A stretch of 64,000 nt of DNA from Actinomycetota bacterium (GTDB taxonomy: Bacteria; Actinomycetota; Acidimicrobiia; Spongiisociales; UBA11373): the NCBI GenBank assembly GCA_018821365.1, contig JAHJML010000174.1, positions 10,067-74,066 of the forward strand. Direction: 5' to 3'. Both the position numbers and the translations under genes were made by a program. Positions 7,236 to 56,089 of this stretch are shown here, piece by piece. Each line of letters opens with the position of its first letter. The first letter of the stretch is position 1. Under the pieces are notes generated by a model. It ran no database searches. It saw only the letters and a list, made by a program, of their open reading frames with translations, and was not told the origin of the DNA.

Positions 7236-7257
7236 GCGGCGGGGATCTTTCTCCCGC

Positions 7258-7276
7258 TAGGGGACTTTTGGCCCTA
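7258..7276. promoter_or_regulatory. imperfect palindrome TAGGGGAC-TTTT-GGCCCTA, 55 nt upstream of the nonahaem cytochrome start (candidate operator, site a)
   Basis: Read directly. Same motif recurs at 9989-10006 and 17426-17443 upstream of two other multihaem cytochrome genes. Confidence 0.4.
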
Positions 7277-7331
7277 CGCGAAGTGCTCCCCCAGCGGCCA
7301 GAATGACCCCGGACGCTGCTGGGGAGACTGT

Positions 7332-9888: not shown

Positions 9889-9988
9889 CAGCCGGCCGGA
9901 TCCTTCGCGGCCGGTTGGAGTGGGCATCCCGGGTGCCGCGGTGGCTTCGATCGCGGCGGTCGCGCTCCCCGTGAGGCGTCCCTGACAA

Positions 9989-10006
9989 TAGGGCCAGAGG
10001 TCCCTA
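9989..10006. promoter_or_regulatory. imperfect palindrome TAGGGCC-AGAG-GTCCCTA, 55 nt upstream of the ImcH-like gene (site c; an extra GTCCCT half-site lies immediately upstream)
   Basis: Read directly. It is the reverse complement of the arrangement at sites a and b. Confidence 0.4.
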
Positions 10007-10061
10007 TGAGCGAGCACCTCCCATCTCCTAGCGTGGGTCCAGCACAGAGGGGAGACGTGAA

Positions 10062-11666: not shown

Positions 11667-11687
11667 TCGGCACCTAGCCGCCAACTC

Positions 11688-11724
11688 GAGAGGCCCCGGG
11701 TTCCCCCTCTACCCGGGGCCTCTC
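11688..11724. terminator. GC-rich hairpin (14-bp stem GAGAGGCCCCGGGT/ACCCGGGGCCTCTC, 9-nt loop) between convergent genes; candidate bidirectional terminator
   Basis: Perfect inverted repeat read directly. Lies between the stop of the ImcH-like gene (11666) and the stop of the bc-complex operon (11819). Confidence 0.5.
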
Positions 11725-11818
11725 TGCGCGGCATCCCGGGTGCACCGGGCTAACCCGGCAGCGGCTCGTCGACAACGACACCCGCCGGCGCCTGAGCGAG
11801 CCTGTGCGGCCGTGCCGC

Positions 11819-13912
11819 TCAGTTGTCGGGTGCCCCCTGGCGGATCCAGGCGAGGATCGCATCCACCTCGGTGGTCGGGAGGGACCCGGAGGGCGGCATG
11901 AACCCGCCTGTCCCGGTGCCGAGCAGCCATTGGCCGAGGAGGCTGTTCTCCGCATCGCCGGGGATGACCGCGGGTCCGCTGTTGCCGCTCGCCATCACCG
12001 ACTGGTACGACTCGGCCGACCATCCGCCGGACGCTCCGTGGCACGCCAGGCACTTCGACTGGAAGATGGGCAGCACGTCGCCCGAGAAGGACACCTCCGC
12101 AACCGGCCCGGGGGTGCCCGGTCCGCCCTGCAGCGAGCGGATCAACTCGACCAGTCCGGAGATCTGCTCGTCGGTGAGGATGTCCCCCCAGCCGATCATG
12201 GCGGTGGCCGGGTGGCCGAGGTCGATCGTCTCGAACAACTGGCTGTCGGAGTGGATCGCCTGCCACTCCGGAGATTGGAACGAAGGCCCGATCCCGCCCT
12301 CCCCGTCGGCGCCGTGGCATTGGGCACAGAACCCTGCGTAGATGTCGGCGACATCCACCAGCAACGGGGCCCGCTCGACCGCCGGCGGGAGCTCGACCGG
12401 AGGGTTGTCCTGCCAGGACCGGATGTAGGCGACGATCGCCCCCACCTCGTCGGCGTCCAGGGGGCCGCCGAAGGCCAGGCCGAAGGGTGACATCCCCGAG
12501 TCGGGCTGCCCCTGGGTGATGATGGCCCTGATGGTGATGTAGTCGCGGGTCACCAGGTACTGCTCGGTGCTGATCGGGCCGATCGTGAAGGATGGATCGA
12601 CCGGGCTGGCCCCTCCCTCCCCGAACTCGCCGTGGCACACCGTGCAGTGCTGCTCGAACAGGGTCTTTCCGAGCACGGCAGGCGAACCCTGGCTGGCCTC
12701 ATAGGCGTAGTCGGTCAGGGCGTCCAATTGCTCGGCGGTGAGCACGTCGCCCCAGACCGGCATCGTTTGGTGGGAACCACCCTTGACGATGATCTCGGTG
12801 GCGGCTTCCACCGACTCGGCCACCGGAACCCGGGTTCCGTGGCACACGGCGCAGTCGGCCTCGAAGAGGGCAGCACTCGAAGCGGGCGCCGTGTCGGGGG
12901 CCACCACGTAGGCGGCCAGAGCGGCGATGTCGGCATCGGGGAGGACTCCGCCCATCGCCGGCATCGTCAGATGCCCCCCACCCTTCTCGATGATCGCCAG
13001 CAACTCGTTGCGCGTTCCGGCGAACTGGGCGCTGTTGCCGTGACAGGCGGCGCAGTTGAGCACGAACAGACGGTGTCCGTCGGGTGCGATGAGGAAGTTG
13101 ACGAGGGCGGTCGCCGAACTCTCGTCGAGCGAGGGGAGGTCGAGGCCCGCGTGCGGTTCGAACTCCGAGCCGGGCTGGAGGGCCGCCCGGAGGGTGAGCG
13201 GTTGGGTGGCAGCCAGGCCGACCGCCTGGTGGCACCCCGAACAGGAGTCCTGGAACACGGCGCTGCCGTTGGGCGAGAGGACGAAGCCGACCAGGGCGTC
13301 GATCTCGTCTGAGGAAAGGTCGCCGCTCCAGGCCGGCATCCCCTCGTGGCCGCCCTGGGAGATCACGTCGCCGAGATTGACTCCGGCGGGAACGGCGATC
13401 GAGGTGCCGTGGCACCCCGAGCAGTTCTCGGTGTAGAGGAGGGCGACCGGGTCGCCGCCGGCGGCCTCGAGGGGCGGTTCCGCCGCCAGCAGCGCCTGCA
13501 CGGTGAGGCCCAGCACCCCGAGGAAGAGGAACACCACGAACCCGAGGACGATGGGACGCCCCCGGATGTTGCGGGTGCGGGATCGATCCAGCCATGGGAG
13601 TGCCGCCAGGATGAGGAGGATCGCCCCGGGCAGGATGATCACGCCGACAAACTCCAGGTTCCCCGGGAAGAACTTGAGCAACTGGAAGAGCCAGAGGAAG
13701 TACCACTCGGGCCGGGGTGTGAACGAGTCGTCGGACGGGTTGGCCTGGTCGCCCAGTTCGGCACCGATCACGGCGGAGAGCACCACCAACGCCACGAACA
13801 CCAGCAGGGAGACTATGGCGTCCTTGAACAGGGCGTTGGGGAAGAACGGGATGCCCCGCTTCTTGTCCTCCTGGTACTTCTCCAGGTAGTCACGCCTGTC
13901 CTGTTCCCGCAT
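11819..13912 (-). CDS. cytochrome b C-terminal domain (subunit IV / QcrC-like) fused to seven class-I cytochrome c domains
   Basis: N-terminus has three TM helices and the PEWY motif (PEWYFLWLFQLLKFFP) of cytochrome b / subunit IV. Then seven CxxCH (CSGCH x2, CAACH, CAVCH, CTVCH, CAQCH, CLACH), each followed about 40-60 aa later by a Met-Pro axial-ligand-like motif. Confidence 0.85.
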   Translation of the reverse strand: MREQDRRDYLEKYQEDKKRGIPFFPNALFKDAIVSLLVFVALVVLSAVIGAELGDQANPSDDSFTPRPEWYFLWLFQLLKFFPGNLEFVGVIILPGAILLILAALPWLDRSRTRNIRGRPIVLGFVVFLFLGVLGLTVQALLAAEPPLEAAGGDPVALLYTENCSGCHGTSIAVPAGVNLGDVISQGGHEGMPAWSGDLSSDEIDALVGFVLSPNGSAVFQDSCSGCHQAVGLAATQPLTLRAALQPGSEFEPHAGLDLPSLDESSATALVNFLIAPDGHRLFVLNCAACHGNSAQFAGTRNELLAIIEKGGGHLTMPAMGGVLPDADIAALAAYVVAPDTAPASSAALFEADCAVCHGTRVPVAESVEAATEIIVKGGSHQTMPVWGDVLTAEQLDALTDYAYEASQGSPAVLGKTLFEQHCTVCHGEFGEGGASPVDPSFTIGPISTEQYLVTRDYITIRAIITQGQPDSGMSPFGLAFGGPLDADEVGAIVAYIRSWQDNPPVELPPAVERAPLLVDVADIYAGFCAQCHGADGEGGIGPSFQSPEWQAIHSDSQLFETIDLGHPATAMIGWGDILTDEQISGLVELIRSLQGGPGTPGPVAEVSFSGDVLPIFQSKCLACHGASGGWSAESYQSVMASGNSGPAVIPGDAENSLLGQWLLGTGTGGFMPPSGSLPTTEVDAILAWIRQGAPDN

Positions 13913-13916
13913 ACGG

Positions 13917-14576
13917 CTACTCCCCCTTCTTGGGAGGCGCCGAGATGCCGTTGCGCACCACCAGGTAGAGGTGGAGGCCCACCAGGAGCAGCAGGATCGC
14001 CGGCAGCACCCACACGTGGATCCCGTAGAAGCGGGACAGGGTCACCGCGCTCAGGTCGTCCCCGCCCCTCGCCACCCGCAGCGCCCAGTCACCGATGAGC
14101 GGCGTCACCTCCAACATGCGGGTGCCCACCACGGTGGCCCAGTAGGCCTTCTGGTCCCAGGGAAGCAGGTACCCGGTGAACCCGAACGCCAGCGTCAGTA
14201 CCAGCAGCCCCACCCCCGACAGCCAGGTGATCTCCCGCGGGAACTTGTACGCCCCGTGGTAGATCACCCGCACCATGTGGAGCCCGACCAGCAGGACCAT
14301 GGCGCTGGCCCCCCAGTGGTGCATGCCCCGGATCAGCCACCCGGCGGTCAGGTCGTGGGAGATGAAGTCGACGGTGGCGTAGGCATCCTGGACACTGGGC
14401 ACGTAGTAGATGGTGAGGAGGATCCCGGTGATGATCTGATTGACCACCACGATCAAGGTGGCGCTGCCGAGGGTGTAGGCCCAGTTGACCTTGGGCACCT
14501 GGCGGAGGAACACCCCATCCCAGACGAGGCGCCACCCGGTTCGCTCATCCAGCCAGCCGCCGACCCGGTCGCTCAT
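13917..14576 (-). CDS. cytochrome b6 (N-terminal four-helix dihaem-b domain of a split cytochrome b)
   Basis: 219 aa with conserved His pairs in helices B and D (GMHHWGASAMV..HMVRVIYHG ... FYGIHVWVLP) and the TGYLLPWDQ motif. Confidence 0.9.
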   Translation of the reverse strand: MSDRVGGWLDERTGWRLVWDGVFLRQVPKVNWAYTLGSATLIVVVNQIITGILLTIYYVPSVQDAYATVDFISHDLTAGWLIRGMHHWGASAMVLLVGLHMVRVIYHGAYKFPREITWLSGVGLLVLTLAFGFTGYLLPWDQKAYWATVVGTRMLEVTPLIGDWALRVARGGDDLSAVTLSRFYGIHVWVLPAILLLLVGLHLYLVVRNGISAPPKKGE

Positions 14577-14577
14577 C

Positions 14578-15051
14578 TCACGCCTCCAGGCTCACGAAGA
14601 TCTGGCCGTCCTCCACCTTGACGGGGAACTCATCCAGACCCCTCGGCGGCGGGCCGGCGACCACCTGCCCGTCGACACTGAAGACGCCGTTGTGACAGGG
14701 GCAGAAGAACTCGTTCTGGTCGGCGACCCAGCGGACCCGGCACCCGAGGTGCGTGCAGACGTTGGAGAACCCCCTGAACTCGCGACCGTCGTGGGTGACG
14801 ACGTAGACGGCCACCTCCGCCTCGGTGGAGACCCATCCACTGGTCTTGGTGACCTTCGCCTTGAAGAGGGAGGGCGTTCCAATGTCGACTCGATCAGCGG
14901 CGCCGAGTACGATCCACTCCGCCTCGCCCGTCTTCTTCTTGGCCGGGCTCAGCACGTAGGCAACCCCCGGTACCGCCCAGCCGATCCCGATGGCGGCGGC
15001 AATGGCAACGGTGGCTCTACTGAGGAACTTCCGCCGGTCCATTGGTGCCAT
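14578..15051 (-). CDS. Rieske [2Fe-2S] iron-sulfur protein, Tat-exported
   Basis: Twin-arginine signal RRKFLSRATVAIAAA. Rieske boxes CTHLGC and CPCHNG. Confidence 0.9.
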   Translation of the reverse strand: MAPMDRRKFLSRATVAIAAAIGIGWAVPGVAYVLSPAKKKTGEAEWIVLGAADRVDIGTPSLFKAKVTKTSGWVSTEAEVAVYVVTHDGREFRGFSNVCTHLGCRVRWVADQNEFFCPCHNGVFSVDGQVVAGPPPRGLDEFPVKVEDGQIFVSLEA

Positions 15052-15190
15052 GGTGCTCGCCCTTCCCCGGAAACCCCGTCGTTCGGCATTCCTAGCGGAA
15101 AGCGTTCGGCGCGCCGTCCACCCGGGACGTTCGGACTCTAGCCAGCGCCTCTCACGTCCGCAGCCGTGTCGGAAAGGCGTCCGCCGGACG

Positions 15191-15223
15191 CCAAGGGGCC
15201 CGGGATGACCCCGGGCCCCTTGG
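15191..15223. terminator. GC-rich hairpin CCAAGGGGCCCGGG-atgac-CCCGGGCCCCTTGG downstream of the decahaem cytochrome gene
   Basis: 14-bp perfect stem read directly. Lies between the decahaem gene stop (15242) and the Rieske start (15051). No U-tract, as is common in high-GC genomes. Confidence 0.45.
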
Positions 15224-15241
15224 TCCTTGCGAGAGGTGCGA

Positions 15242-17362
15242 CTACGGCCGGGTGTAGCCGGTCACATCCCCACCGACGTTCTCGATCGAGTCGATCAGCA
15301 ACTGGATCACGTACTTGCCGTTGTGGGCGAATCCACCCGGATCCTTGACGGCGTACTGGTAGTTGTAGGCCGAGCCAAGCAGCGCCGGTGTCCACATGCC
15401 GAACGCCTCATCACCACTGAAGAAGTACGGATACCGGTTCGGGTCGTAGATCAGGTCCCCGAGGCCGTATGCCTCGGAATAGGCCTGGAGCGCTGCGTAG
15501 AGGTCAGCCCGGAGGGTGTCGATCTCTCCGTACAGTCCTTCGGCCGCGTCCCCGTCACCGTCGAAGTCGCCCTCGCTGATGCGGAACGCCATCGGGTCGT
15601 CGCTGCCGTGGCAGCCTGCGCACGACTCGACCTTGACCTCCAGGGTGTGGGACCCATGGCATTCGGTGCAGGTGTCGAAACCCTCGACATGGGCATTGCG
15701 ACCCGCGTACTCCTTGCCGGCGAACTGGAACCCGCCCTGCACCTCCCCTCCGAACAGGGTCGCCCCTGCTGGGAAGTAGTGCACGTTGCGGAACCGCAAA
15801 CCCTCGACGACGTCGTTGGGTCCGGCATCGCCGATGGCCGCATTGACGCTGACCGTGGACTCGCGTCCCTGGTGGCAGTTCATGCAGAGATTGCCGTCGG
15901 CGCTCCCGCTGTCGACCTCGAGCCCGCTCGGGAACTCGACTGGGCCTGCCTCGTGGCGAGTCCAGGTGGTGAAGTCGTTGTGGCAGGTCGAGCACAGGAA
16001 GCCGTTGCTGGGCTCCTGGCTGACGGTGACGCCCTCAGCGAGGAACAGCGGCAAGCCGGCTGCACTGTGGCACTTGGAGCACGACGCCGGCACCACTGCC
16101 GGGTCGTCCTCGTCCCAGTGGCGGAAGGCCTCCTCAGAGCCGGCGAAGTGCCCATGGTCGATGCGATGGGCCGCATCGACGGCGATCGGGCTGCTCAGCA
16201 CCGAGTTGAGGTCCTCGGTGGAGTCGCTCAGCAACTGGAGGATGTACTTGCCGCCGTGGGCGAACGCCCCCGGATCCTTCAAGGCCACCTGATAGTTGTA
16301 CGCCGCCCTCACGAGGCGCGGAGTCCAGGCCGGGTAGGCATTGCCGAAGTTGGCCTCGCCCTCGGTCACGGCCCCGTCGCCGTCGGTGTCGGCGAAGAAG
16401 TACGGATAGGTCAGACCGTCGTAGACAAGCCCGGTGCCCACGGTCTCGGAGGCATACGCCTGCATCGCCAGATACAGCGTGGCGGTCGCGCCCTCGATCT
16501 CGTAGTAGATGCCTTCGGCCAGGTCGCCGTCGCCGTCGTAATCGACCAGAGAGCCCATCATGCGGACGTTCTTCAGGTCGTCCGCCGAGGTCACTCCGAC
16601 GTGACACGTGGCGCATTCCTCGATCTTGAGTTCGAGGCTGTGCGGATTGTGGCAATCCACACAGGTCTCGTAACCCTCGATGTGGGTGAAGAAGGCGTCA
16701 TAGGTCCCGCCTTCGTACTGGTAGCCGCCCATCGCCTCGTTGCCGTACTTGGTGGCTGCGGCGGCAAAGTAGTGGATGTTGATGAACCCGAGATCTTCGC
16801 TGACTTCGTCGTCACCAACGCCGGCGGCGGTGATCGCCTCGTCCACCGTCACCTTGGATGCCCTGCCCTGGTGGCAGGTCATGCAACGAGCCTCTGCACC
16901 CAGGCCGGTCAGCTCGACACCGGATGGCATCGTCACGCTGTCCAGGGCCAGGGTGGCCGCGTTGTGACAGGTCGTACAGGTGATGGTCGTGTCGGGATCG
17001 TGGGCAGCGTCGACGACTCCGGCAGCGCTCCCGTCGGCGCCGACGAAGTCCTGGAAGCCGGTACCGACGTGGCACTTGGCACAGGACTCGGGCACGACCG
17101 CCGGGTCGTCCCCGTCCCAGTGTCGGAAGGCTTCGGCGTCGGCGGCATTGTGGGCAGACGCCTCCCATGCTGCGAGGAACGGGATCTCGACCGCAGGCTC
17201 CACCACCACGGGGACCGTGGTGGTGGTCGCCGGCGCCTCGGTGGTGGTCACCGGGGCGGCGGTCGTAGTCGTTCCTGCGTCGTCGCCGCTACAGGCGGCG
17301 ATGACCAGGGAGAGGGCTGCGAGCAGTGCGCCGATCGTCGACAGCCTGGATCGATGGGTCAT
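15242..17362 (-). CDS. decahaem c-type cytochrome lipoprotein with internal pentahaem duplication
   Basis: Lipobox LSLVIAACSG followed by a Thr-rich linker. Ten CxxCH: CAKCH, CTTCH, CMTCH, CVDCH, CATCH, CSKCH, CSTCH, CMNCH, CTECH, CAGCH. The two halves are clearly homologous (AFRHWDGDDPAVVPESCAKCH vs AFRHWDEDDPAVVPASCSKCH). Confidence 0.85.
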   Translation of the reverse strand: MTHRSRLSTIGALLAALSLVIAACSGDDAGTTTTAAPVTTTEAPATTTTVPVVVEPAVEIPFLAAWEASAHNAADAEAFRHWDGDDPAVVPESCAKCHVGTGFQDFVGADGSAAGVVDAAHDPDTTITCTTCHNAATLALDSVTMPSGVELTGLGAEARCMTCHQGRASKVTVDEAITAAGVGDDEVSEDLGFINIHYFAAAATKYGNEAMGGYQYEGGTYDAFFTHIEGYETCVDCHNPHSLELKIEECATCHVGVTSADDLKNVRMMGSLVDYDGDGDLAEGIYYEIEGATATLYLAMQAYASETVGTGLVYDGLTYPYFFADTDGDGAVTEGEANFGNAYPAWTPRLVRAAYNYQVALKDPGAFAHGGKYILQLLSDSTEDLNSVLSSPIAVDAAHRIDHGHFAGSEEAFRHWDEDDPAVVPASCSKCHSAAGLPLFLAEGVTVSQEPSNGFLCSTCHNDFTTWTRHEAGPVEFPSGLEVDSGSADGNLCMNCHQGRESTVSVNAAIGDAGPNDVVEGLRFRNVHYFPAGATLFGGEVQGGFQFAGKEYAGRNAHVEGFDTCTECHGSHTLEVKVESCAGCHGSDDPMAFRISEGDFDGDGDAAEGLYGEIDTLRADLYAALQAYSEAYGLGDLIYDPNRYPYFFSGDEAFGMWTPALLGSAYNYQYAVKDPGGFAHNGKYVIQLLIDSIENVGGDVTGYTRP

Positions 17363-46603: not shown

Positions 46604-46798
46604 ATGTTCAGACAGATCGGAACCGGCGAGATCATCCTGATCGTGGTCGTGCTCGTGTTCTTGTTCGGGGCCAAGAAGCTCCCCGAGTTGGCCCGCTCGC
46701 TCGGCAGGTCGGTCAAGGAACTCCGCGGCGGGCTCAAAGAAGGCCTCGAGGAAGGCCCCGGGGGCGGCCTCGACAACGAACTGGACGAGGACACCTAG
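46604..46798 (+). CDS. tatA: twin-arginine translocase subunit TatA/E
   Basis: MFRQIGTGEIILIVVVLVFLFGAKKLPELARSLGRSVKELRGG. ATG at 46604; the upstream part of the track ORF is not coding. Confidence 0.8.
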   Translation: MFRQIGTGEIILIVVVLVFLFGAKKLPELARSLGRSVKELRGGLKEGLEEGPGGGLDNELDEDT

Positions 46799-46810: not shown

Positions 46811-48823
46811 CTAGCGGGCCGCCTCTGACATCTCCCGCAACTCCCGGCGCAACTCGTTGACCTCGTCGCGCAGCCGGGCGGCGTATTCGAACCGCAACTC
46901 CCGGGCTGCCTGGCGCATCTCCTCTTCGAGGCTCTGCACCAGCCGCTGCAGGTCGTCGAACGGCATGTCGATCTTCTGGCGCTCGGACACCTCCCGGCGA
47001 CGCCGCTCGACCCCGGGCGCCTCGGCGGTGTGCAGCAGTTCGAGGATGTCGGAGATCTTCTTGCGGATGGTCTGGGGGTCGATGCCGTGCTTCTCGTTGT
47101 GGATCACCTGGAGCGCCCGGCGCCGATTGGTCTCGTTGAGCGCCGCCTGCATCGACCTCGTGACGTTGTCGGCGTACATGACCACCTGGCCGTCGACGTT
47201 GCGCGACGCCCTGCCGATCGTCTGGATGAGGCTCGTCTCCGATCGGAGAAAGCCCTCCTTGTCGGCGTCGAGGATGGCCACCAGGCCGACCTCGGGGAGG
47301 TCGAGGCCCTCCCGGAGCAGGTTGATCCCCACCAGCACGTCGAACTCCCCCAGCCTGAGGTCCCGCAGGATCTGGACCCGCTCCAGCGTGTCGATCTCGG
47401 AGTGGAGGTAGCGGCACCGCACTCCCATCTCCAGCAGGTAGTCGGAGAGGTCCTCGGCCATCTTCTTGGTGAGGGTGGTGACCAGCACCCGCTGGTCGGC
47501 CTCGGCGCGGGCCCGGATCTCCCCGAGGAGGTCGTCGATCTGCCCGCGGGTCGGCTTGACGATGACCTCGGGATCGACCAGGCCGGTGGGGCGGATGATC
47601 TGCTCGACCACGGTCGTCGAGTGCTCGATCTCCCACTTGGATGGGGTGGCCGACAGGAACACTGCCTGGCCGACCCGCTCGTTCCACTCCTCGAAGCGCA
47701 GCGGCCGGTTGTCAGCGGCCGAAGGGAGTCGGAACCCGTGGTCGATCAGTACGTCCTTGCGGCTCCGGTCGCCGAGGTACTGGCCGTGGATCTGGGGGAT
47801 GGTCACGTGGCTCTCGTCGACCACGGTGAGGTAATCGTCGGGGAAGTAGTCGAGCAGGGTGTAGGGGGGCTCCCCCGGCTCCCGCCCATCGAGGTGCCGG
47901 CTGTAGTTCTCGATGCCGTTGCAGTACCCGACCTCCCGCATCATCTCGAGGTCGTAGCTGGTGCGCATTCGGAGCCGCTGCGCCTCGAGCAACCGGTTCG
48001 CCTCCTCCAGATCGGCGAGCCGGTCGGCCAACTCCTCCTCGATGCCGGCCTGGGCCTGCAGCATCCGTTCGGCGGTCGCCACGTAGTGGGTCGCCGGGTA
48101 CACGAACAACTCGGGGAGGTCGCGGATGACCTCGCCGGTCACCGGGTTCATCTCGACGATCCGCTCGACCTCGTCGCCGAAGTACTCCACCCGCATCACG
48201 GTCTCGCCGTAGGCGGGGAACACCTCCAGAGTGTCGCCCCTCACCCGGAACTTGCCCCGAATGACGTTGATCTCGTTGCGTTCGTACTTGATGTCGACGA
48301 GGCGGCGAATGGCATGGTCGAGGGGGAACTCGACGCCGGCGACCAGTCGGAGCAGCTGGCCCTCGTACTGCTCGGGGGAACCCAGCCCGTAGATCGCCGA
48401 CACCGAGGCGACGATGATGACATCCCGCCTGGTGAGAAGGGCGGCGGTCGCCGAGTGCCGGAGCCGGTCGATTTCGTCGTTGACGGTGGCGTCCTTCTCG
48501 ATGTAGGTGTCGCTCTGGGGGATGTAGGCCTCGGGCTGGTAGTAGTCGTAGTACGAGACGAAGTACTCGACACGGTTCTCGGGGAAGAACTGGCGGAACT
48601 CGTTGGCCAGTTGCGCCCCCAGCGCCTTGTTGGGCGCCAATACCAGGGTGGGGCGCTGCACCCGCTCGATCAGCCAGGCGATCGTCGCCGACTTGCCGGA
48701 CCCGGTGATGCCGAGCAGGGTCTGGAAGCGATCCCCCTTCTCGATCCCAGCCGCCAGCGCCTCGATGGCCGCCGGCTGGTCACCGGCGGGTGAGTAGTCC
48801 GAATGGACCTTGAACGGCTGCAT
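46811..48823 (-). CDS. uvrB: excinuclease ABC subunit B
   Basis: [21 protein letters not shown]-terminus, helicase motifs, C-terminal UVR domain. ATG at 48821-48823. Confidence 0.85.
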
Positions 48824-48856
48824 CCCGAACACGATACCCGGGGGGTGTGACGGAGA

Positions 48857-49444
48857 TCAGCCCGGCGGGCGTCCCACCAGCGCCGTCCATACCCGCCGGC
48901 ATTCGGCGGCCAACTCGTCGGGGCCGCCGCTGTTGTCGATGACGTGGTCGGCCAGCGCCAGCCACTCGCCGCGCCGCGGTTGGACCGCCATTCGGCCGGC
49001 GATCTCCTCCGGTTCCATGCCGCGCAGCCTCAGTCGGAAGATCCGCAGGTCCTCGGGGGCATCGACCACGATCCGGGGCCAGCCCTCGCCGAGGACGTCG
49101 ATCGGCAACGGCACCTCCACCAGGATCAGGGGTGCCTCGCCGGCCGCTTCCACCTCGGATGCCACCACCCTGGCGATGGCCGGGTGGGTGATGGCTTCGA
49201 GTTCGAGCAGGCCGCCCGGCTCGGAGAAGACCAATCGCCCGAGTGCCCCCCGATCGATCACCCCGCCGACTACCGCCTCCGGCCAACGGGCGGCGACCGC
49301 CGCCTCGGCCTCCCCTCCGGGTGCGAGCACCAGGTGGCCCGCCGCGTCCGCCGACACCACCGCAGCACCGAGTGACACGAAGACCGCGCTTGCAGTGGAC
49401 TTTCCGGAACCGATGCCCCCACTGAGGAGGGCGTGTGCCGTCAT
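48857..49444 (-). CDS. coaE: dephospho-CoA kinase
   Basis: P-loop LSGGIGSGKST; about 195 aa. Confidence 0.8.
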   Translation of the reverse strand: MTAHALLSGGIGSGKSTASAVFVSLGAAVVSADAAGHLVLAPGGEAEAAVAARWPEAVVGGVIDRGALGRLVFSEPGGLLELEAITHPAIARVVASEVEAAGEAPLILVEVPLPIDVLGEGWPRIVVDAPEDLRIFRLRLRGMEPEEIAGRMAVQPRRGEWLALADHVIDNSGGPDELAAECRRVWTALVGRPPG

Positions 49445-49466
49445 ACCGGGACGTTACCGGCCCGGA

Positions 49467-51146
49467 TCAGCGGGGAAGGAACAACTCGGCCAGGGTGTAG
49501 AACGCCTTGGCCACCCGGGAGCGGGGGCTGAAGGTCACCGCCGGCACTCCCTCGTTGACCGACTGGGGAATCAACCGGTCGGATGGGATCGAGGCCGCCA
49601 CCTTCTCCCCGAGCGCCCGTTCCAGTTCGGCGAGGTCGAGACGCGCCTTGCTGTTGGCCCGGTTGACCGTGAGGTGGACCTTCCCGGTGTCGAAGCCGAT
49701 CGCCCGCAGCGTGTCGAGGGCGATCTTGGCGTTCTTGACGCTGGGCAAGTCCATGTCGACGACCAGCAAGACGTCGTCGGAGTGCTCGAGAAGCGTGATG
49801 AGGCCGTCGTCGAAGATCGGGGCGGTGTCCACCACCACGAAGGAGTACATCCCCCGCAGCATCTCGACCACCCGCACGACGTCCTTGGGCCCGATCTTGT
49901 CGGCACCCGCCGGCACCAGCGGCGCCGGCATCACCCGGAGCCCCGAGTCGTGGCGCAGCAGGATGGCATCGAGGCGGGGCTCCGTCAGTTCGTCGATGAT
50001 GGCGGCGGCGTCGACGATGGTTCGGGACGGATCGATCTGAAGCATCAGGGCCACGTCGCCGAACTGGAGATCGGCGTCGACGATGACCACCTTGTCCTCT
50101 CCGAGTCGCTCGGTGAGCGCGGCCGCCAGGTTGGTGGCGGTGATCGTCTTGCCGGACCCGCCCTTGCCGGCCATCACCGTGATCACCCGGCCCCCGCCGG
50201 GCCTTCGATGGGCCAGGGGAACCTCGACGGCAGCCACCTGCGGGATCGACATCGGGGCTGCCATGCCGGGCATCGGCGGCGGGGTGGCCGGCATCGGCGG
50301 CGCCTCAACCAGAAGCTCCGGCGGCGGGGGCGGGCTCGGGAGCATGGGAGGGGCAAACGGCACATCCTGGACCGGCACCGAGGGCTCGGCTACGGCCGCC
50401 GGCGGCGCTATGAGTTCCGGTGGAGCCGCAATCGGCATGTCGAGGGGGGCCGGAGCGGGCGGCGCCGGGATCGGAGCCGCCTGGGGCGCCGCCGGGGCCG
50501 CCGCGGCGATCTCATCGGCGAAGATCGCTTCGGTGCCGGAACCCGACGAGAAGCTCTCGAAGGTGGCTTGCGGCGCCGTGAAGGCGCCGAAGGCGGGCGG
50601 GGCCGGGGTCGTTATGGCCGGTGTGGCTGGGAACTGGTCGGGGAGGCTCCGGGTCGGAGGCGGCTCGGGGGCGGTGGCGGCGCCCGGCTCCTCGATCGGG
50701 TCCATGGAGACGTGTGGATGGCCGGCGGGCGGCGCCGCGCTCGCCAAGACCACCGGGACCGAACGCGCCTCGTCGAGGGCATCGGTGCGGCTCAGCACCT
50801 CCCCGAGCTTGCGGGTCGACAGCGGTGCATCGATGACGTCGGCGAATCCGGAGCGCAACGCCATGCGGAGCACCCGGTTGGTCGGCACGTCGGCAACCAG
50901 AACGGTCAGGAGGGTGCGATCGGCCTCGCGCAGCACGGCGGCCGCGGCGACCCCCGGCTCGGTTCCGAAACTCGGGCCCACCAGGGCCAGATCGAAGCGG
51001 CCACCCTCGGCGATGGCTGCCGCCTCCTCCATCGAGCGCGCCCCCACGATGCGATCGTCCGGCAGCATGGCCGTCAGGGCGTCGGCGAACCCCAGGTCGG
51101 GGTCGACGACGAGAACCAGGCGGCCCTGGGGGGACCCGGCGGTCAT
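49467..51146 (-). CDS. ParA/MinD-type ATPase with N-terminal receiver-like domain and long Pro-rich linker (Ssd/CpaE/TadZ-like)
   Basis: N-terminal approx 120 aa REC-like (LVLVVDPD...). Pro/Ala-rich low-complexity residues approx 150-330. C-terminal deviant Walker A VMAGKGGSGKT and a MinD/ParA body. Confidence 0.65.
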   Translation of the reverse strand: MTAGSPQGRLVLVVDPDLGFADALTAMLPDDRIVGARSMEEAAAIAEGGRFDLALVGPSFGTEPGVAAAAVLREADRTLLTVLVADVPTNRVLRMALRSGFADVIDAPLSTRKLGEVLSRTDALDEARSVPVVLASAAPPAGHPHVSMDPIEEPGAATAPEPPPTRSLPDQFPATPAITTPAPPAFGAFTAPQATFESFSSGSGTEAIFADEIAAAAPAAPQAAPIPAPPAPAPLDMPIAAPPELIAPPAAVAEPSVPVQDVPFAPPMLPSPPPPPELLVEAPPMPATPPPMPGMAAPMSIPQVAAVEVPLAHRRPGGGRVITVMAGKGGSGKTITATNLAAALTERLGEDKVVIVDADLQFGDVALMLQIDPSRTIVDAAAIIDELTEPRLDAILLRHDSGLRVMPAPLVPAGADKIGPKDVVRVVEMLRGMYSFVVVDTAPIFDDGLITLLEHSDDVLLVVDMDLPSVKNAKIALDTLRAIGFDTGKVHLTVNRANSKARLDLAELERALGEKVAASIPSDRLIPQSVNEGVPAVTFSPRSRVAKAFYTLAELFLPR

Positions 51147-51262
51147 GCTCTCCTGCCTTCTTCGGACGTTGCTCGACGGCGCGGTGCGCCGTCACGGAGA
51201 GCGTCGGTCCGGAAAGCAGGCTGCTTGAGGGTTTCGGGGCGGTCGGCCGTGCCGGCGAGCGG

Positions 51263-52951
51263 CTACTTGCGGCCGATCCCCTTCTCCTTCAGTTCCGCCA
51301 GGATCGCTTCGAGGTCGGCGGTGATCGGCGGCTCGTCGAGGCGCTCGGGCTTGGCGTCCTCGCGCTCGAACTCCTTGCGCTGGCGCCGCGGCGGGCCGCT
51401 CCGCTCCTCGCCGGCCCACTGCTGGCGATCCTCCCACTCGGGGGATGCCTGCTTGATGGACAGGCTGATGCGGCGGCGGTTCACGTCGATCTCGGTGATC
51501 TTCACCTTGACCTGCTGTCCCAGCGAGAGCTCCAACTCGGGGCTCTCGACGTGGTGCATGGCGATCTCCGAGACGTGCACCAGGCCTTCGACACCGTCGG
51601 TGACGGCCACGAACGCCCCGAACGGGACCGTCTTGGTCACCTCGCCGTCGACGACGGACCCCACTCCGTTCGACTCGGCGAACGACTCCCAGGGGTCGTC
51701 CCGGGTCTGTCGGATCGACAGCGAGATGCGCTCCCGCTCCCGATCGACCTCGAGCACCTTGACGTTGACCTCGTCGCCCACCGAGACGACCTCGGAAGGA
51801 TGGCTGACGTGCTGCCACGACAACTCCGATACGTGGACCAGGCCGTCCATCCCGCCCAGGTCCACGAAGGCCCCGAAGTTGACCACCGAGGACACCACCC
51901 CGGACCGCATCTCGTCCGGCTGCAGGCCGTCGAGGAACTCCTGGCGCTGGTCGGCCTGGGCCTCTTCGAGGTGGGCCCGACGGGACAGCACGACGTTGTT
52001 GCGGTTCTTGTCCAACTCGATGACCTTGGCCTCGAGCTTCTCACCGATGAAGGGATGCAGGTCGCGGACCCGCCGCAGATCCACCAGCGAGGCGGGCAGG
52101 AACCCCCGCAGGCCGATGTCCACGATGAGGCCGCCCTTGACCACCTCGATGACCTGACCGGTCACCGTCCCGCCCTCGTTCATGATCTGCTCGATGCGGC
52201 CCCAGGCGCGCTCGTACTGGGCGCGCTTCTTGGAGAGGATGAGGCGGCCTTCGGCATCCTCCATCTGCAGGACGAGGGCTTCGATCTCCTCGCCCACACT
52301 GACGATCTCCGCCGGGTTGACCGAATTGCGGATCGACAACTCGTTGCCGGGGATGACACCCTCGGATTTGAAGCCGATGTCGACGAGCACCTCGTCCGGA
52401 TCGACCCTGACGACGGTGCCGGTGACGATGCTGCCCTCGGAGAACTCGATGACGGTCTTCTCGACCGCCGCCGCGAAGTCCGCCTCGGAGAGGTCGCCGG
52501 CCAGGTCGCCGAGATCGGCCAATCCGTCTGCCGGCCTGGGCGCGATCGGCGCCTCCTGGCGCATGATCGTCGCCGAGGTGGTGGGCTCGGGGAGCACCGT
52601 CGGCTTGCGAACCGGCTTCTCGGCCGGCGGAGCGGCTTCCTCGGCCGCAGCCACCGCCTCCTCGATCGGGGCGTCCACCGCAGGAGCAGGCTCCTCGGCG
52701 GGGGCTTCCGCGGCAGGCTCAGCAACCGCCTCCTCGATGGGGGCGTCCGCCACAGGAGCGGGCTCCTCGGCGGGGGCTTCCGCCGCGGGAGCGTCGACCG
52801 CTTCCTCAGCAGGTGCCGCCTCCTTCTCGGGGTCGGATTCGGCTGCTTCTGGGGCCGTCGGCTCGATGGCTTCCGGCATCGCCTCGTCCGTGGTTGCTTC
52901 CGGCTCCTGGCCTTCTGCGTCCACAGGCGCGTTCGTCGTGTCTTCGGTCAT
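51263..52951 (-). CDS. rpsA: 30S ribosomal protein S1 with approx 140-aa acidic Ala/Pro/Glu-rich N-terminal extension
   Basis: Four or more S1 domains (GSIVTGTVVRVD..., GTVTGQVIEV..., GVVSSVVNFGAFVDLGG...). Start chosen at ATG 52949-52951 (MTEDTTN). The extension contains two copies of an approx 23-aa repeat. Confidence 0.85.
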   Translation of the reverse strand: MTEDTTNAPVDAEGQEPEATTDEAMPEAIEPTAPEAAESDPEKEAAPAEEAVDAPAAEAPAEEPAPVADAPIEEAVAEPAAEAPAEEPAPAVDAPIEEAVAAAEEAAPPAEKPVRKPTVLPEPTTSATIMRQEAPIAPRPADGLADLGDLAGDLSEADFAAAVEKTVIEFSEGSIVTGTVVRVDPDEVLVDIGFKSEGVIPGNELSIRNSVNPAEIVSVGEEIEALVLQMEDAEGRLILSKKRAQYERAWGRIEQIMNEGGTVTGQVIEVVKGGLIVDIGLRGFLPASLVDLRRVRDLHPFIGEKLEAKVIELDKNRNNVVLSRRAHLEEAQADQRQEFLDGLQPDEMRSGVVSSVVNFGAFVDLGGMDGLVHVSELSWQHVSHPSEVVSVGDEVNVKVLEVDRERERISLSIRQTRDDPWESFAESNGVGSVVDGEVTKTVPFGAFVAVTDGVEGLVHVSEIAMHHVESPELELSLGQQVKVKITEIDVNRRRISLSIKQASPEWEDRQQWAGEERSGPPRRQRKEFEREDAKPERLDEPPITADLEAILAELKEKGIGRK

Positions 52952-53039
52952 GGGTATGGAGTGTCTCCTCAATGGAAGCTCTTCGGCACGCGACCGAAGG
53001 CGCCGGAACGATACCACAGGGGTTTGGCGTCGCGACCGG

Positions 53040-55667
53040 TCAGCCCTTGGCGTCCCCCAGCGTGCGCCCGGTGGCGATATCGACCAGCAGCGGGACCTCG
53101 AGGACCGAAACCCCCTCCATGACCTCCCTGACCAGGGCCTCGGCCCGCTCCATCTCCCCCTCCGGCACCTCGAAAACCAGTTCGTCGTGCACCTGCAGCA
53201 GCATGGCGGTTGCCATCCACTCCCCGGTCAGTCTGACATCGAGTTCGATCATCGCCTGCTTGATGATGTCGGCGGCGGCTCCCTGGATCGGGGCGTTGAG
53301 CGCCATCCGCTCGCCGGCCTGCCGAATCCGGTAGTTGCCGGAGGCCAGTTCGGGCAGGTAGCGGCGCCGCCCCATCAGGGTGGTGGTGTAGCCGTCGTGA
53401 CGGGCTCGCTCCACGATCCCCTCCATGAACGCCTGCACCTGGGGGAACTGGGCGAAGTAGGCGTCCATGTGCGCCTGGGCCTCCTCGGTCGAGATCTCGA
53501 GGCGCTGGGCCAGGCCGTAGGCCTCCATCCCGTACAACAGGCCGAAGTTGATGGTCTTGGCCCGCCGCCGCAGATCGGGATCGACCGCCTCCGGATCGGC
53601 CCCGAACACCCGGGCCGCAGTGGCGGAGTGGATGTCCCCGCCGGTTCGGAAGGCTTCGAGCAGCCCGGGGTCCCCGCTGAGGTGCGCCAGTATCCGCAAC
53701 TCGATCTGGCTGTAGTCGGCGACCAGGAACCGGTGGCCCTCGTCGGCGACGAAGGCCCGGCGGATGGTCCGCCCTTCCTCGGTGCGGATCGGGATGTTCT
53801 GCATGTTGGGCCGTTCGCTCGACAGCCGGCCGGTCGCCGCCCCGGTCTGGTTGAACACGCAGTGGATCCGGCCGTCCCGGCCGATCAAGGGAATCAGTCC
53901 GTCGACATAGGTAGAGCGCAGTTTCTCGAGCGCCCGGTACTCGAGAAGGTGATCGACCACCGGGTGCTCCGATGCGAGCTTCTGGAGAACCGACGCATCC
54001 GTGGAGGGTGCTCCCTTGGGGGTCTTCTTGAGGACCGGGAGCGCCAGTTTGTCGTAGAGGATCTCTCTCAACTGCAGGCTCGAGTTGATGTTGAAGGGCT
54101 CGCCGGCGGCCTGGTAGATCCGGGCTTCCAGCCCGGCGAGGCGATCCCGCAGGCTCTCCCCCAGTTCTACCAGGTACTGGCGGTCGACCCCGATCCCGGC
54201 TTCCTCCATCCGGGCCAGCACCCGCACCAGCGGAAGCTCCAACTCACGCAAGACCGTGGCACCGCCCCTGGCCTCCAGTTGCTCGGTGAGCGGCTCCACC
54301 AGGCGGGCCACCGCCGTCGCCCTGCGGGCGGCCCCCTCCAGGTCCGGCCCCGCGCCCCCGAAGTCCAGCGTCCCCTGAGCGCCCCCCGCCTTCTGGTCGG
54401 CCGACGGGCCGATCTCCAACCCCAGCACCGTCCCCGCCAGTTCGGCCAGATCGGGGGCCCGCTCGGCCGGGTTGATGACGTACCCGGCCAGCGAGGTGTC
54501 GAACTCCAGGCCGTCGAAGTCCAGGTCCATCTCGAACAGCGCCCGTACCAGTGGCTTGGCATCGTGGAGGATCTTGGGGACTGCCGGGTCGGCGAACGCC
54601 GCCTCGAGCGGTCCGAAGTGCTCGGCCGGGACGAAGGAAGCCTCTCCTTCGTCCCCTGCGATCATCACCCCGATCAGGGCCTCGTGGTCCCACACCGGCT
54701 CCATGACCAGGGGGCCGGCCGCCAACTCGGCGAGCCGCCGAGGGTCGCGGACCGTGGCGACCTCGACGTCGATCGCCTCGTCCGCCTGTGGCGCCCCGGC
54801 CCCGCCGATCTCCTGGAGCCGCTGCCACAAGGTCTTGAAGGCCAGGCCGTTGAAGACCTCACGGACTTGGGCGGCGTCCCATTCCTCGAGGCGGAAGGAC
54901 TCGATATCGTCGTCCAGCGGCACCGAGTCGACCAGGTAGGTGAGGCGGCGGTTGAGGAACACCTGCTCCCTGGCCGCCTCCAGGCTCTCGCGGAGGCGGG
55001 GGGTCTGGTCCTCGAGATGCTCGTAGATCCCGTCGAGATCGCCGTACTCGGACACCAGTTTGGTGGCGGTCTTCTCTCCCACCCCGGGCACCCCGGGCAG
55101 GTTGTCGCTGGAGTCTCCCCGCAGCGCCGCATAGTCGGGGTACTGGTCGGGCCGAATGCCGTACTTCTTCTGGATGTAGGCGGCATCGGCGGCGACGTTG
55201 TCGCTGATCCCCCGCAGGGTGTAGATCACGGTGACCCGGTCGTCGATCAGTTGGAAGGCATCCCGGTCGCCGGTCACCACCAGCACGTCCCACCCCGCCT
55301 CGGCCGCCCGCTTCGCCAGGGTGCAGATGATGTCGTCGGCCTCGTACCCGGGAGCCTGCAGTTGGGCGAACCGCAGTGCGTCGGCCACCTCCCGGATCAG
55401 CGGGACCTGGCTGCGGAACAGATCGGGGGCCGCCCTCCGGTTGGCCTTGTACTCCTCGAAGGCTTCGCTGCGGAAGGTGGCCTCCGGGGTGTCCCAGGCG
55501 ACCGCCAGCGCGTCCGGGTGCTCGTCCCCGAGCAGTTTGATCACCATGGAGGTGAACCCGAAGACCGCATTGGTCACCTGGCCCGCTGGCGTCGCCAGAT
55601 CGGTCGGCAGGGCGTAGAACGCCCGATAGGCGAGGCTGTATCCGTCGAGGAGGGCGAGCGTCGGCAT
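53040..55667 (-). CDS. polA: DNA polymerase I
   Basis: 875 aa: 5-3 exonuclease N-terminus (MPTLALLDGYSLAYRAFYAL), polymerase motifs (RRRAKTINFGLLYG..., QVHDELVFE). Confidence 0.9.
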   Translation of the reverse strand: MPTLALLDGYSLAYRAFYALPTDLATPAGQVTNAVFGFTSMVIKLLGDEHPDALAVAWDTPEATFRSEAFEEYKANRRAAPDLFRSQVPLIREVADALRFAQLQAPGYEADDIICTLAKRAAEAGWDVLVVTGDRDAFQLIDDRVTVIYTLRGISDNVAADAAYIQKKYGIRPDQYPDYAALRGDSSDNLPGVPGVGEKTATKLVSEYGDLDGIYEHLEDQTPRLRESLEAAREQVFLNRRLTYLVDSVPLDDDIESFRLEEWDAAQVREVFNGLAFKTLWQRLQEIGGAGAPQADEAIDVEVATVRDPRRLAELAAGPLVMEPVWDHEALIGVMIAGDEGEASFVPAEHFGPLEAAFADPAVPKILHDAKPLVRALFEMDLDFDGLEFDTSLAGYVINPAERAPDLAELAGTVLGLEIGPSADQKAGGAQGTLDFGGAGPDLEGAARRATAVARLVEPLTEQLEARGGATVLRELELPLVRVLARMEEAGIGVDRQYLVELGESLRDRLAGLEARIYQAAGEPFNINSSLQLREILYDKLALPVLKKTPKGAPSTDASVLQKLASEHPVVDHLLEYRALEKLRSTYVDGLIPLIGRDGRIHCVFNQTGAATGRLSSERPNMQNIPIRTEEGRTIRRAFVADEGHRFLVADYSQIELRILAHLSGDPGLLEAFRTGGDIHSATAARVFGADPEAVDPDLRRRAKTINFGLLYGMEAYGLAQRLEISTEEAQAHMDAYFAQFPQVQAFMEGIVERARHDGYTTTLMGRRRYLPELASGNYRIRQAGERMALNAPIQGAAADIIKQAMIELDVRLTGEWMATAMLLQVHDELVFEVPEGEMERAEALVREVMEGVSVLEVPLLVDIATGRTLGDAKG

Positions 55668-55697: not shown

Positions 55698-55970
55698 TCA
55701 CCCGAGCCGTTCGAGCAGGCGCTCCCGCTTCGCCTCCAGGCGGGCGCGCCTCGACTGCAGGCCGGCCAGCGTCGTACGGAACCGGGCGACATCGCCGGCC
55801 GTCATCCGGGCGTCGTCCCGCTCCAGTGGCCCGCCCACCGCAGCATCCCGGCGGGCGTCGTCGTCGAGGTGCTCCAGCATCCCCAGTTCGCCCTCGGTGA
55901 GCCGCTCCTCGGCCCGCAGCCGATCGATCTCCTCGTTGAGGCGGAACAGGCGATCGTGGATGCGGCTCAT
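55698..55970 (-). CDS. hypothetical small coiled-coil protein
   Basis: MSRIHDRLFRLNEEIDRLRAEERLTEGELGMLEHL...; start placed at ATG 55968-55970 so it does not overlap the tRNA. No recognisable family. Confidence 0.3.
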   Translation of the reverse strand: MSRIHDRLFRLNEEIDRLRAEERLTEGELGMLEHLDDDARRDAAVGGPLERDDARMTAGDVARFRTTLAGLQSRRARLEAKRERLLERLG

Positions 55971-56003
55971 GGTGGTGCCCGGCGCGGATATCATCCTGGC
56001 TGC

Positions 56004-56089
56004 GCCGGGATGGCGGAATGGTAGACGCGACGGACTCAAAATCCGTTGAGCTCACGCTCGTGGGGGTTCGACTCCCCCTCCCGGTACCA
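56004..56089 (+). tRNA. tRNA-Leu (anticodon CAA), type II, CCA encoded
   Basis: GCCGGGATGGCGGAATGGTAGACGCGACGGACTCAAAATCCGTTGAGCTCACGCTCGTGGGGGTTCGACTCCCCCTCCCGGTACCA. Anticodon loop CTCAAAA. Confidence 0.85.

Follow-up and report, generated by a model that had tools for sequence, protein, structure and literature searches.

An orphan CpaE/TadZ-family ATPase with a long disordered linker, apparently left over from a Tad pilus locus, as a possible autonomous organizer in a clade of Acidimicrobiia

We analyzed a 64,000-nucleotide stretch of DNA from an actinobacterium (Acidimicrobiia; Spongiisociales; UBA11373; GenBank assembly GCA_018821365.1, contig JAHJML010000174.1, positions 10,067 to 74,066; hereafter, the window), in which a minus-strand gene for a protein of 559 amino acids (aa) lies between rpsA and coaE. 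Judged from sequence and gene order, this gene is an orthologue of cpaE/tadZ, which supplies the Tad pilus (Flp, type IVc) with its ParA/MinD-type ATPase. Proteins of this family are viewed as components dedicated to the Tad machine; the gene studied here has no adjoining tad genes, has been kept under purifying selection, and encodes a remodeled protein. On balance, we favor the view that the product is a CpaE/TadZ ring subunit, the sole survivor of its tad locus, which was exapted as a stand-alone, ATP-dependent dimerizing scaffold or positioning protein. We propose only tentatively the fuller scenario in which a Tad ring subunit became an autonomous ParA/MinD-type organizer (e.g., a polar or septal hub or a tether) in a pilus-less clade of uncultured Acidimicrobiia, with its function residing in a new acidic, Pro-rich, disordered linker of 100 to 540 aa that bears conserved docking motifs.

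The open reading frame (ORF) runs from ATG to stop without a frameshift, and a Shine-Dalgarno-like, purine-rich AGGAG lies 5′ of its ATG. The G+C content at third codon positions (0.88 in the N-terminal domain, 0.85 in the linker, and 0.93 in the ATPase; 0.89 for the whole gene) is in keeping with that of genuine genes elsewhere in this window, which has 68 to 70% G+C, and both of the other reading frames contain stops within the linker. A 100% identical protein has been deposited from an NCBI metagenome-assembled genome, with no label other than "AAA family ATPase." The original prediction, made from the window alone, had described a receiver-like N terminus, a proline-rich linker, and a MinD/CpaE-type ATPase, and this architecture was recovered by Pfam, NCBIfam, and AlphaFold2. 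The AlphaFold2 model, based on an alignment of 96 sequences, contained a (beta/alpha)5 fold at aa 10 to 128 and a MinD-like domain at aa 319 to 555, both with a predicted local distance difference test score (pLDDT) of >90.

The N-terminal domain connects the protein to CpaE. A profile of the N-domain family matched best the solved CpaE N-terminal domains 4dad and 4dn6 (E, 3e-11), followed by true response regulators and then by TadZ (4lda; E, 0.004). The position of the phospho-acceptor Asp is occupied by Gly57, which was invariant in the 96 sequences, and is followed by Pro58 (at least 90% conserved); the domain is thus a pseudo-receiver. In the window protein, the position of the conserved receiver Lys reads Ala107. 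The Pfam model Response_reg (PF00072) reached 16.4 bits (E, 0.011) against a cut-off of 30.2. Of the two domain families anticipated in the original prediction, CbiA/ParA was recovered (see below) and Response_reg stayed below threshold.

In the ATPase domain (aa 319 to 555), the Pfam models AAA_31, ParA, and CbiA matched (placed at aa 320 to 554) with E values of 1e-10 to 1e-12. The best NCBIfam matches were archaeal MinD (TIGR01969; 94.4 bits; cut-off, 201.75) and bacterial MinD (TIGR01968; 84.9 bits; cut-off, 212.9). The actinobacterial Ssd/CpaE homolog model (Ssd/CpaE_hom_Actino; TIGR03815) scored 59.5 bits (cut-off, 154.45) over aa 313 to 549 (i.e., the ATPase part only), and the ParA partition ATPase model (NF041546) scored 50.3 bits (cut-off, 180). 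Membership in the Ssd, MinD, ParA, and response regulator families was rejected because all of the scores were below the curated cut-offs. Sequence matches in the PDB were 3ea0 (a Chlorobium ParA-family protein) and the MinD structures 1g3q and 1ion. In Foldseek searches, the ATPase aligned with 3ea0 at a template modeling (TM) score of 0.89 and with MinD at 0.8 to 0.84, and FleN and FlhG were also similar. The full model matched MinD/ParA-type chains only, with no TadZ/CpaE chain in the top 50, so the link to CpaE comes from the N-domain profile and from synteny. Approximately 40 columns were invariant, all of the catalytic residues among them: Lys328, Gly330, Gly332, and Lys333 in the deviant Walker A motif, Asp357 and Asp359 in switch I, and Asp440 in Walker B.

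The evidence for an orphaned locus comes from the rpsA-coaE junction of relatives. Look-ups of genomic context, together with scanning of the GTDB species genomes (best 80 of 541 loci kept), gave 89 loci, which were classified by tblastn with reference proteins. The junction occurred in two states. In approximately 70 species (state 1), the order was polA-rpsA-rcpC-cpaE-cpaF-tadB-tadC-(...)-flp-RR-HK-coaE-uvrB, where RR is a response regulator and HK is a histidine kinase. Here, rcpC directly follows rpsA, the cpaE product has ~390 to 400 aa, and coaE lies 7 to 10 kb downstream of cpaE. Some of these genomes carry tadE/tadG upstream of polA. In locus L007 (positions 1-2395 and 7027-15476; also L027, L035, L037, L039, L042, L071, and L072), polA and rpsA lie inside a split Tad region, with tadE/tadG upstream of polA and rcpC-cpaE-cpaF-tadBC-flp plus a pair consisting of a LuxR-type RR and a HisKA_3 kinase downstream of rpsA. 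In state 2 (i.e., the window and 15 further loci), the order was polA-rpsA-X-coaE-uvrB, where X is the orphan gene with a linker of 163 to 281 aa. Loci L002, L003, and L006 duplicate L001 and L005; 12 distinct orphan-type loci were examined.

The original prediction had remarked that no tad genes were nearby, and a tblastn search (E ≤ 1e-5) of the 64-kb window with RcpC, CpaF, TadB, TadC, Flp, TadE, TadG, RR, and HK of a relative indeed returned no match. The same was true of tad genes within approximately ±8 to 10 kb of the orphan loci. Neither in the window nor in these flanks did we find remnants of tadE/tadG, of rcpC, or of the block from cpaF through HK around the orphan gene. What the original prediction had read as a lone gene inserted into a conserved block proved to be a leftover, in that the junction generally carries a whole Tad locus in Acidimicrobiia. 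It had also considered that the arrangement might be universal in the lineage and annotated (e.g., as Ssd). This held in part: the arrangement was present in 12 of 12 distinct orphan-type loci, found with a search seeded on the gene, and the Ssd annotation was absent.

Protein databases contain the same two forms, among hundreds of homologs of the window protein. Approximately 85 further 90%-identity clusters (468 to 922 aa), mostly labeled Acidimicrobiia, share the architecture of the window protein, and their names in public records are generic (i.e., "AAA family ATPase" or "MinD-like ATPase"); there are also many proteins of ~390 to 400 aa labeled "pilus assembly protein CpaE." ATPase identity to the window protein was at least 61% for the long forms (n = 84; one at 58%) and at most 59% for the short forms (n = 24; ~355 to 403 aa in total length). 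Both domains can be aligned over their full length between long and short forms, at 47 to 50% identity. A search of 1.84 billion cluster representatives yielded 856 family members (E ≤ 1e-30), typically of 380 to 420 aa, and the long two-domain forms were a small group at the top of that list. The CpaE-like proteins P0163 (689 aa), P0129 (490 aa), P0214 (514 aa), and P0221 (473 aa) have a late-starting ATPase and fall outside the main long-linker group, which suggests that other lineages expanded the N terminus or the linker independently. The Tad-related literature that we searched contained no mention of Acidimicrobiia and no description of an orphaned, long-linker CpaE.

Trees were built by neighbor joining with bootstraps, the CpaE tree being based on 362 shared receiver (REC) and ATPase columns. 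The 12 nonredundant orphan proteins formed one bipartition in 500 of 500 bootstraps, and their host genomes formed one clade in the polA (196 of 200) and uvrB (200 of 200) trees. In the midpoint-rooted polA tree, the orphan clade was nested inside tad-bearing lineages, adjoining L007, and the outermost genomes (Microthrix-like and Iamia-like) were tad bearing as well. The orthology of the orphan gene and cpaE follows from this nesting, from the rpsA-coaE site shared with the tad-linked cpaE of approximately 70 species, and from the end-to-end alignment. The simplest history is that a Tad locus was present at this site in the common ancestor and that all of it but cpaE was lost on the stem of one clade. 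With rcpC located upstream of cpaE and the block from cpaF through HK downstream of it, no fewer than two separate deletions are needed; on the same simplest history, tadE/tadG, where located upstream of polA, were lost as well. The place of the gene beside essential genes is best read as a product of history and not as a sign of functional coupling with rpsA or coaE.

The retained gene is functional as far as its sequence can tell. Compared with L001, the closest relative, the ratio of nonsynonymous to synonymous substitution rates (dN/dS) was 0.15 for the REC domain and 0.085 for the ATPase (pairs more distant than L001 were near saturation), values that point to purifying selection. All of the orphan-type loci that could be assembled as a REC-to-ATPase frame were intact, as were the window gene, the 12 distinct loci, and 84 database clusters. 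ATPase identity drops to 61% within the orphan clade, so the clade is old. At an equal polA divergence of 0.3 to 0.5, CpaE-domain distances were 0.40 between tad-linked proteins, 0.60 between orphan proteins, and 0.92 between the two groups, which indicates a burst on the orphan stem followed by somewhat relaxed or altered constraint. Ten positions were fixed differently in the two groups, three of which flank the P-loop (S326A, P327G, and A331S). A basic-Trp-hydrophobic C-terminal tail (RRWF/RSWFGG type) was carried by 17 of the 24 short forms, and all 84 long forms lacked it. This tail presumably resembles the end of the membrane-targeting sequence of Escherichia coli MinD, a likeness that we treat as a lead only. 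The window protein ends in AELFLPR, directly after the last ATPase helix, and has no MinD-like C-terminal membrane-targeting sequence or helix. The sequence comparisons thus reveal three novelties across the clade: a linker of 108 to 543 aa, loss of the basic-Trp-Phe tail, and accelerated substitution that includes the P-loop flanks.

The linker had been singled out as unusual in the original prediction, and the comparison with typical CpaE proteins (380 to 420 aa) agrees. It consists of 27% Pro and 22% Ala, carries a net charge of −13, and was modeled by AlphaFold2 without secondary structure (pLDDT, 35 to 77). Linker length among the database matches was strictly bimodal, at 108 to 543 aa in the long forms (n = 84) versus 3 to 9 aa in the short forms (n = 24) with nothing between; in loci with a tad context, it was 3 to 14 aa. 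The long linkers are poorly conserved in sequence yet always at least 108 aa long, with an acidic, Pro- and Ala-rich composition. In the linker DNA, the only tandem repeats were units of 9 to 17 bp in 2.1 to 2.4 copies, giving no sign of recent expansion or slippage.

Since a MAFFT alignment of the 84 linkers mainly lined up prolines, we relied on motif counts controlled by shuffling, in which the linker motifs were 12-fold to 50-fold above the shuffles. The pattern [VI][VI][VILF][ED] was found in the first 25 linker residues of 32 of the 84 long forms (0.6 expected), and the island VPVVLAS of the window protein reads as a degenerate copy of this family motif, [D]-V-V-[VF]-E. Toward the other end, PP.P..PP was found in the final 50 residues of 41 of 84 linkers (3.4 expected; maximum, 9 in 200 shuffles). 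It sits 18 to 48 aa N-terminal to the ATPase, often just after an acidic-hydrophobic stretch, and the reduced-alphabet pattern "hehhhe" was found in 20 of 84 (0.6 expected). At the corresponding composite motif of the window protein, pLDDT climbs locally to 73 to 77. Motifs specific to subclades occur just before the ATPase (PVDLERVGLLPADG in P0011, P0020, and P0024; VVVIHPE..PPLRAG in P0042, P0049, and P0059), both of which are absent from the window protein.

Cryo-tomography and modeling in Caulobacter placed six CpaE dimers in a ring around the CpaF motor, with REC-REC contacts joining the dimers and a C-terminal amphipathic helix at the membrane (PMC13170226). TadZ/CpaE proteins are found at the pole, and positioning or assembly of the machine depends on them (PMC11407121). 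The orphan form retains both modules, one for ATP-dependent dimerization and one for REC-mediated contacts, but has lost the tail and the neighboring genes and holds the modules apart with its long spacer. We propose that the orphan protein no longer forms a ring of dimers around CpaF and would act instead as a free-standing ParA/MinD-type switch. Binding of ATP would drive formation of a sandwich dimer through the signature Lys328, and the pseudo-receiver domains would provide contacts of higher order or with a landmark, a role already suggested for TadZ/CpaE. Once the tight geometry of the Tad machine was lifted, the linker could have grown into a flexible spacer and docking region for some partner or cargo, perhaps one located at the envelope or the site of division, with the VVxE-like island and the acidic-hydrophobic stretch plus PPxPxxPPP as candidate docking motifs; a partner might bind either the linker or the REC domain. 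The retention and remodeling of cpaE after the loss of the tad genes on either side argue for a function that does not need a pilus, and the original idea of a positioning factor is plausible. The data establish the orthology, the loss of the neighbors, the selection, the derived features, and the folds; independence from any pilus, dimerization, and docking by the linker belong to the proposal.

Several points weigh against this proposal. The absence of tad genes was established for the 64-kb window and for flanks of at most 10 kb in the relatives, and clade members lacking the gene would have been missed by a search seeded on the gene itself. The trees were built by neighbor joining and rooted at the midpoint, without an outgroup. 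In a genome of 68 to 70% G+C, which favors Pro and Ala codons, the growth of the linker could be neutral for the most part, and the adjoining rpsA also carries an acidic, Ala/Pro-rich extension. The linker dN/dS versus L001 was 0.52 in the aligned part, a value for which the low-complexity alignment was uncertain and dS was close to saturation.

Among the alternatives, the most serious is that the protein still serves in trans as an assembly factor of a Tad pilus, of some other type IV filament, or of a secretion system, with the machine encoded elsewhere and the neighborhood merely rearranged. We regard this as possible and clearly less likely than exaptation. Both CpaE/TadZ domains and all of the catalytic residues have been kept under purifying selection, dispersed tad genes exist in other bacteria (e.g., Bdellovibrio; bioRxiv 10.64898/2026.07.08.737194), and the survey for tad genes covers the window and the flanks. 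Against it, three tad blocks (tadE/tadG of some relatives, rcpC, and cpaF through HK) have gone without remnants, and the loss of the tail, the 10-fold to 100-fold longer linker, the substitutions flanking the P-loop, and the long stem branch bespeak altered constraints. In addition, no second cpaE-like match from an orphan genome was present among the best 80 of 541 loci, which is weak evidence.

A more specific version of the positioning role, a division-site (septum) regulator like mycobacterial Ssd or MinD, is unlikely in our estimation. Among the NCBIfam models, the ATPase scored best against MinD and then Ssd, its closest folds are MinD or MinD-like, and overexpression of Ssd, a CpaE homolog, blocks septation in mycobacteria (PMC3095998). 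Both scores fall far under the cut-offs, however, and the protein lacks the membrane-targeting tail of MinD. None of the adjoining genes tested was a cell division gene (minC, minE, and ftsZ were not specifically searched for), and the data favor the septum over no other cargo.

A decaying, functionless tad remnant, with the linker as junk in an incipient pseudogene, is very improbable. The partner genes are all gone, and the linker has little sequence conservation and differs greatly in length, but the intact frames, the low dN/dS of the folded domains (0.085 to 0.15), the approximately 40 invariant columns, and the age of the clade effectively refute this reading. Least probable of all is a genuine two-component response regulator in which phosphorylation controls a MinD-like output, a reading that draws on the receiver-like fold, on weak Response_reg matches here and in homologs, and on the HK/RR pair of tad-bearing loci, and that is opposed by the invariant Gly57-Pro58 at the acceptor site, the Ala in place of the conserved Lys, the subthreshold Pfam score, the atypical CpaE receiver domains as best structural relatives, and the deletion of the HK/RR pair in the orphan clade.

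The coordinates of the gene, its parts, and its borders are given in Table 1. As stated in the original prediction, the gene lies between rpsA and coaE. Its location on the minus strand is a correction to that prediction, and the order on this strand is polA (55667-53040), rpsA, the ORF, coaE, uvrB (48832-46811), and uvrA (46514-43635). The likely start of rpsA is Met23 (52951). Intergenic gaps measure 116 bp between rpsA and the ORF, 22 bp between the ORF and coaE, and 24 bp between coaE and uvrB. A consensus scan of positions 48700 to 53200 on both strands found neither promoter (sigma-70-like) nor terminator-like sequences, so the operon structure is inferred from the two short gaps. These gaps and the lack of terminator-like sites are compatible with the co-transcription suggested in the original prediction, and the gene is probably co-transcribed with coaE and uvrB. 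The spacer upstream of the gene is largely conserved with L001; when aligned with the rpsA-rcpC spacers of tad-bearing relatives in search of a preserved promoter or 5′ untranslated region, it had no recognizable homology.

Table 1 Positions of the orphan cpaE/tadZ gene, its parts, and the bordering genes in the window
Feature	Position	Strand	Basis
rpsA (ribosomal protein S1), maximal ORF; left border of the former tad locus	51263..53017	-	Four Pfam S1 domains; NCBIfam S1, E 9e-174
rpsA-to-gene spacer (116 bp), with AGGAG at 51150-51154	51147..51262	-	Sequence
Whole gene, orphan CpaE/TadZ-family protein (559 aa plus stop)	49467..51146	-	ORF, homologs, third-position G+C content, dN/dS
Atypical (pseudo-)receiver domain, aa 9-128	50763..51122	-	AlphaFold2 fold; N-domain profile matches; invariant Gly57
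Hydrophobic island VPVVLAS, aa 130-136, directly C-terminal to the receiver-like domain	50739..50759	-	Motif counts
Disordered, acidic, Pro/Ala-rich linker, aa 129-318 (190 aa)	50193..50762	-	Composition; pLDDT; length comparison
Composite motif ELLVEA-PPMPATPPP (ELLVEAPPMPATPPP), aa 277-291; acidic/hydrophobic stretch, then PPxPxxPPP	50274..50318	-	Motif counts; pLDDT
MinD/ParA-type ATPase domain, aa 319-559, ending in LFLPR	49470..50192	-	Pfam, NCBIfam, and PDB matches
Deviant Walker A motif AGKGGSGKT, aa 326-334, with signature Lys328 and Lys333	50145..50171	-	Invariance in 96 sequences
coaE (dephospho-CoA kinase); right border of the former tad locus	48857..49444	-	Pfam CoaE, E 5e-31

A further 20 ORFs of the window were scanned against Pfam and yielded no partner candidate (no specific search for minC, minE, or ftsZ was made), and the products were housekeeping or unrelated proteins only (pgk, a peptide ABC transporter, an M16 peptidase, a WD40 protein, and ParE). 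The rpsA product has an acidic, Ala/Pro/Glu-rich N-terminal extension of ~160 aa preceding the first of its S1 domains (with the match to the curated S1 model beginning at aa 177), which includes a 72-bp tandem repeat at 52647-52807 (2.2 copies; 84 to 92% matches); S1 length among relatives ranges from 426 to 540 aa. A tatA-like gene (46604-46798, plus strand) lies between uvrB and uvrA, and relatives have a TatA_B_E-family gene in the same place. Directly upstream of polA, a gene (55698-56039, minus strand) encodes a protein of ~90 aa with 57% identity to L007:2396-2671; it is conserved in orphan and tad-bearing relatives, has no Pfam match, and has a coiled-coil-like look. Also upstream of polA are a 677-aa WD40-repeat protein (60296-62329, plus strand) and a ParE-toxin-like ORF (63008-63526, plus strand), where relatives carry trpA and nadE, which suggests a local rearrangement or insertion.

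The removal of the other tad genes on both sides of a cpaE that was long kept under purifying selection, and remodeled, amounts to a clean evolutionary experiment, in which the new linker and the lost tail are identified as sequence features that changed along with the apparent shift in function. The locus also illustrates that a place among housekeeping genes can be the fossil of a deleted operon rather than a functional clue and that relaxed architectural constraint can let a 5-aa linker become a disordered region of 100 to 540 aa. The septation claim for the actinobacterial homolog Ssd has stayed isolated. If the organizer scenario is true, the clade offers direct natural evidence for a Tad-independent function of CpaE/TadZ/Ssd proteins; if a tad locus lies elsewhere in these genomes, the finding shrinks to an unusual split-locus variant of CpaE.

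Compared with known systems, the protein is closest to CpaE/TadZ (e.g., Caulobacter CpaE and Aggregatibacter TadZ), with which it shares an atypical receiver without a phospho-acceptor and a deviant-Walker-A ATPase (KGGxGK[ST]), and in particular to the tad-linked CpaE of sister lineages, to which it is 47 to 50% identical end to end and with which it shares its chromosomal site. It differs in lacking the locus context (in the window and the orphan-locus flanks), the compact architecture (its linker has ~190 aa, and 108 to 543 aa across the clade, versus 3 to 14 aa), and the C-terminal basic-aromatic tail, a membrane-associating tail in Caulobacter (PMC13170226). The orphan form is further set apart by its three fixed substitutions flanking the P-loop and its long stem branch. 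Like MinD, FlhG, FleN, and 3ea0, it has an ATPase fold (TM score, 0.8 to 0.89) containing a deviant form of the Walker A motif, whose signature lysine predicts ATP-dependent dimerization. Unlike the MinD group, it has an additional pseudo-receiver and a long linker and scores below the MinD cut-offs; it also lacks the C-terminal membrane-targeting helix of MinD, and no MinC/MinE-type partner was seen among the examined neighbors, which were not subjected to a targeted search. Ssd, presumably still encoded within a tad-like locus, differs in that the window protein is not a TIGR03815 member (59.5 versus 154.45 bits). Ssd (Rv3660c of Mycobacterium tuberculosis) is similar in being an actinobacterial CpaE homolog with a proposed role beyond the pilus, namely, septum regulation (PMC3095998). 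Finally, TadZA of Bdellovibrio bacteriovorus offers a parallel in which the TadZ architecture was remodeled around a flexible linker, TadZ plus the linker being the part that binds a polar hub protein (bioRxiv 10.64898/2026.07.08.737194). There, a TadZ devoid of the receiver-like domain forms a fusion with the TadA motor and continues to work for a Tad machine (bioRxiv 10.64898/2026.07.08.737194), whereas the window protein keeps its receiver-like domain, carries its linker internally, and has lost the motor gene from its locus.

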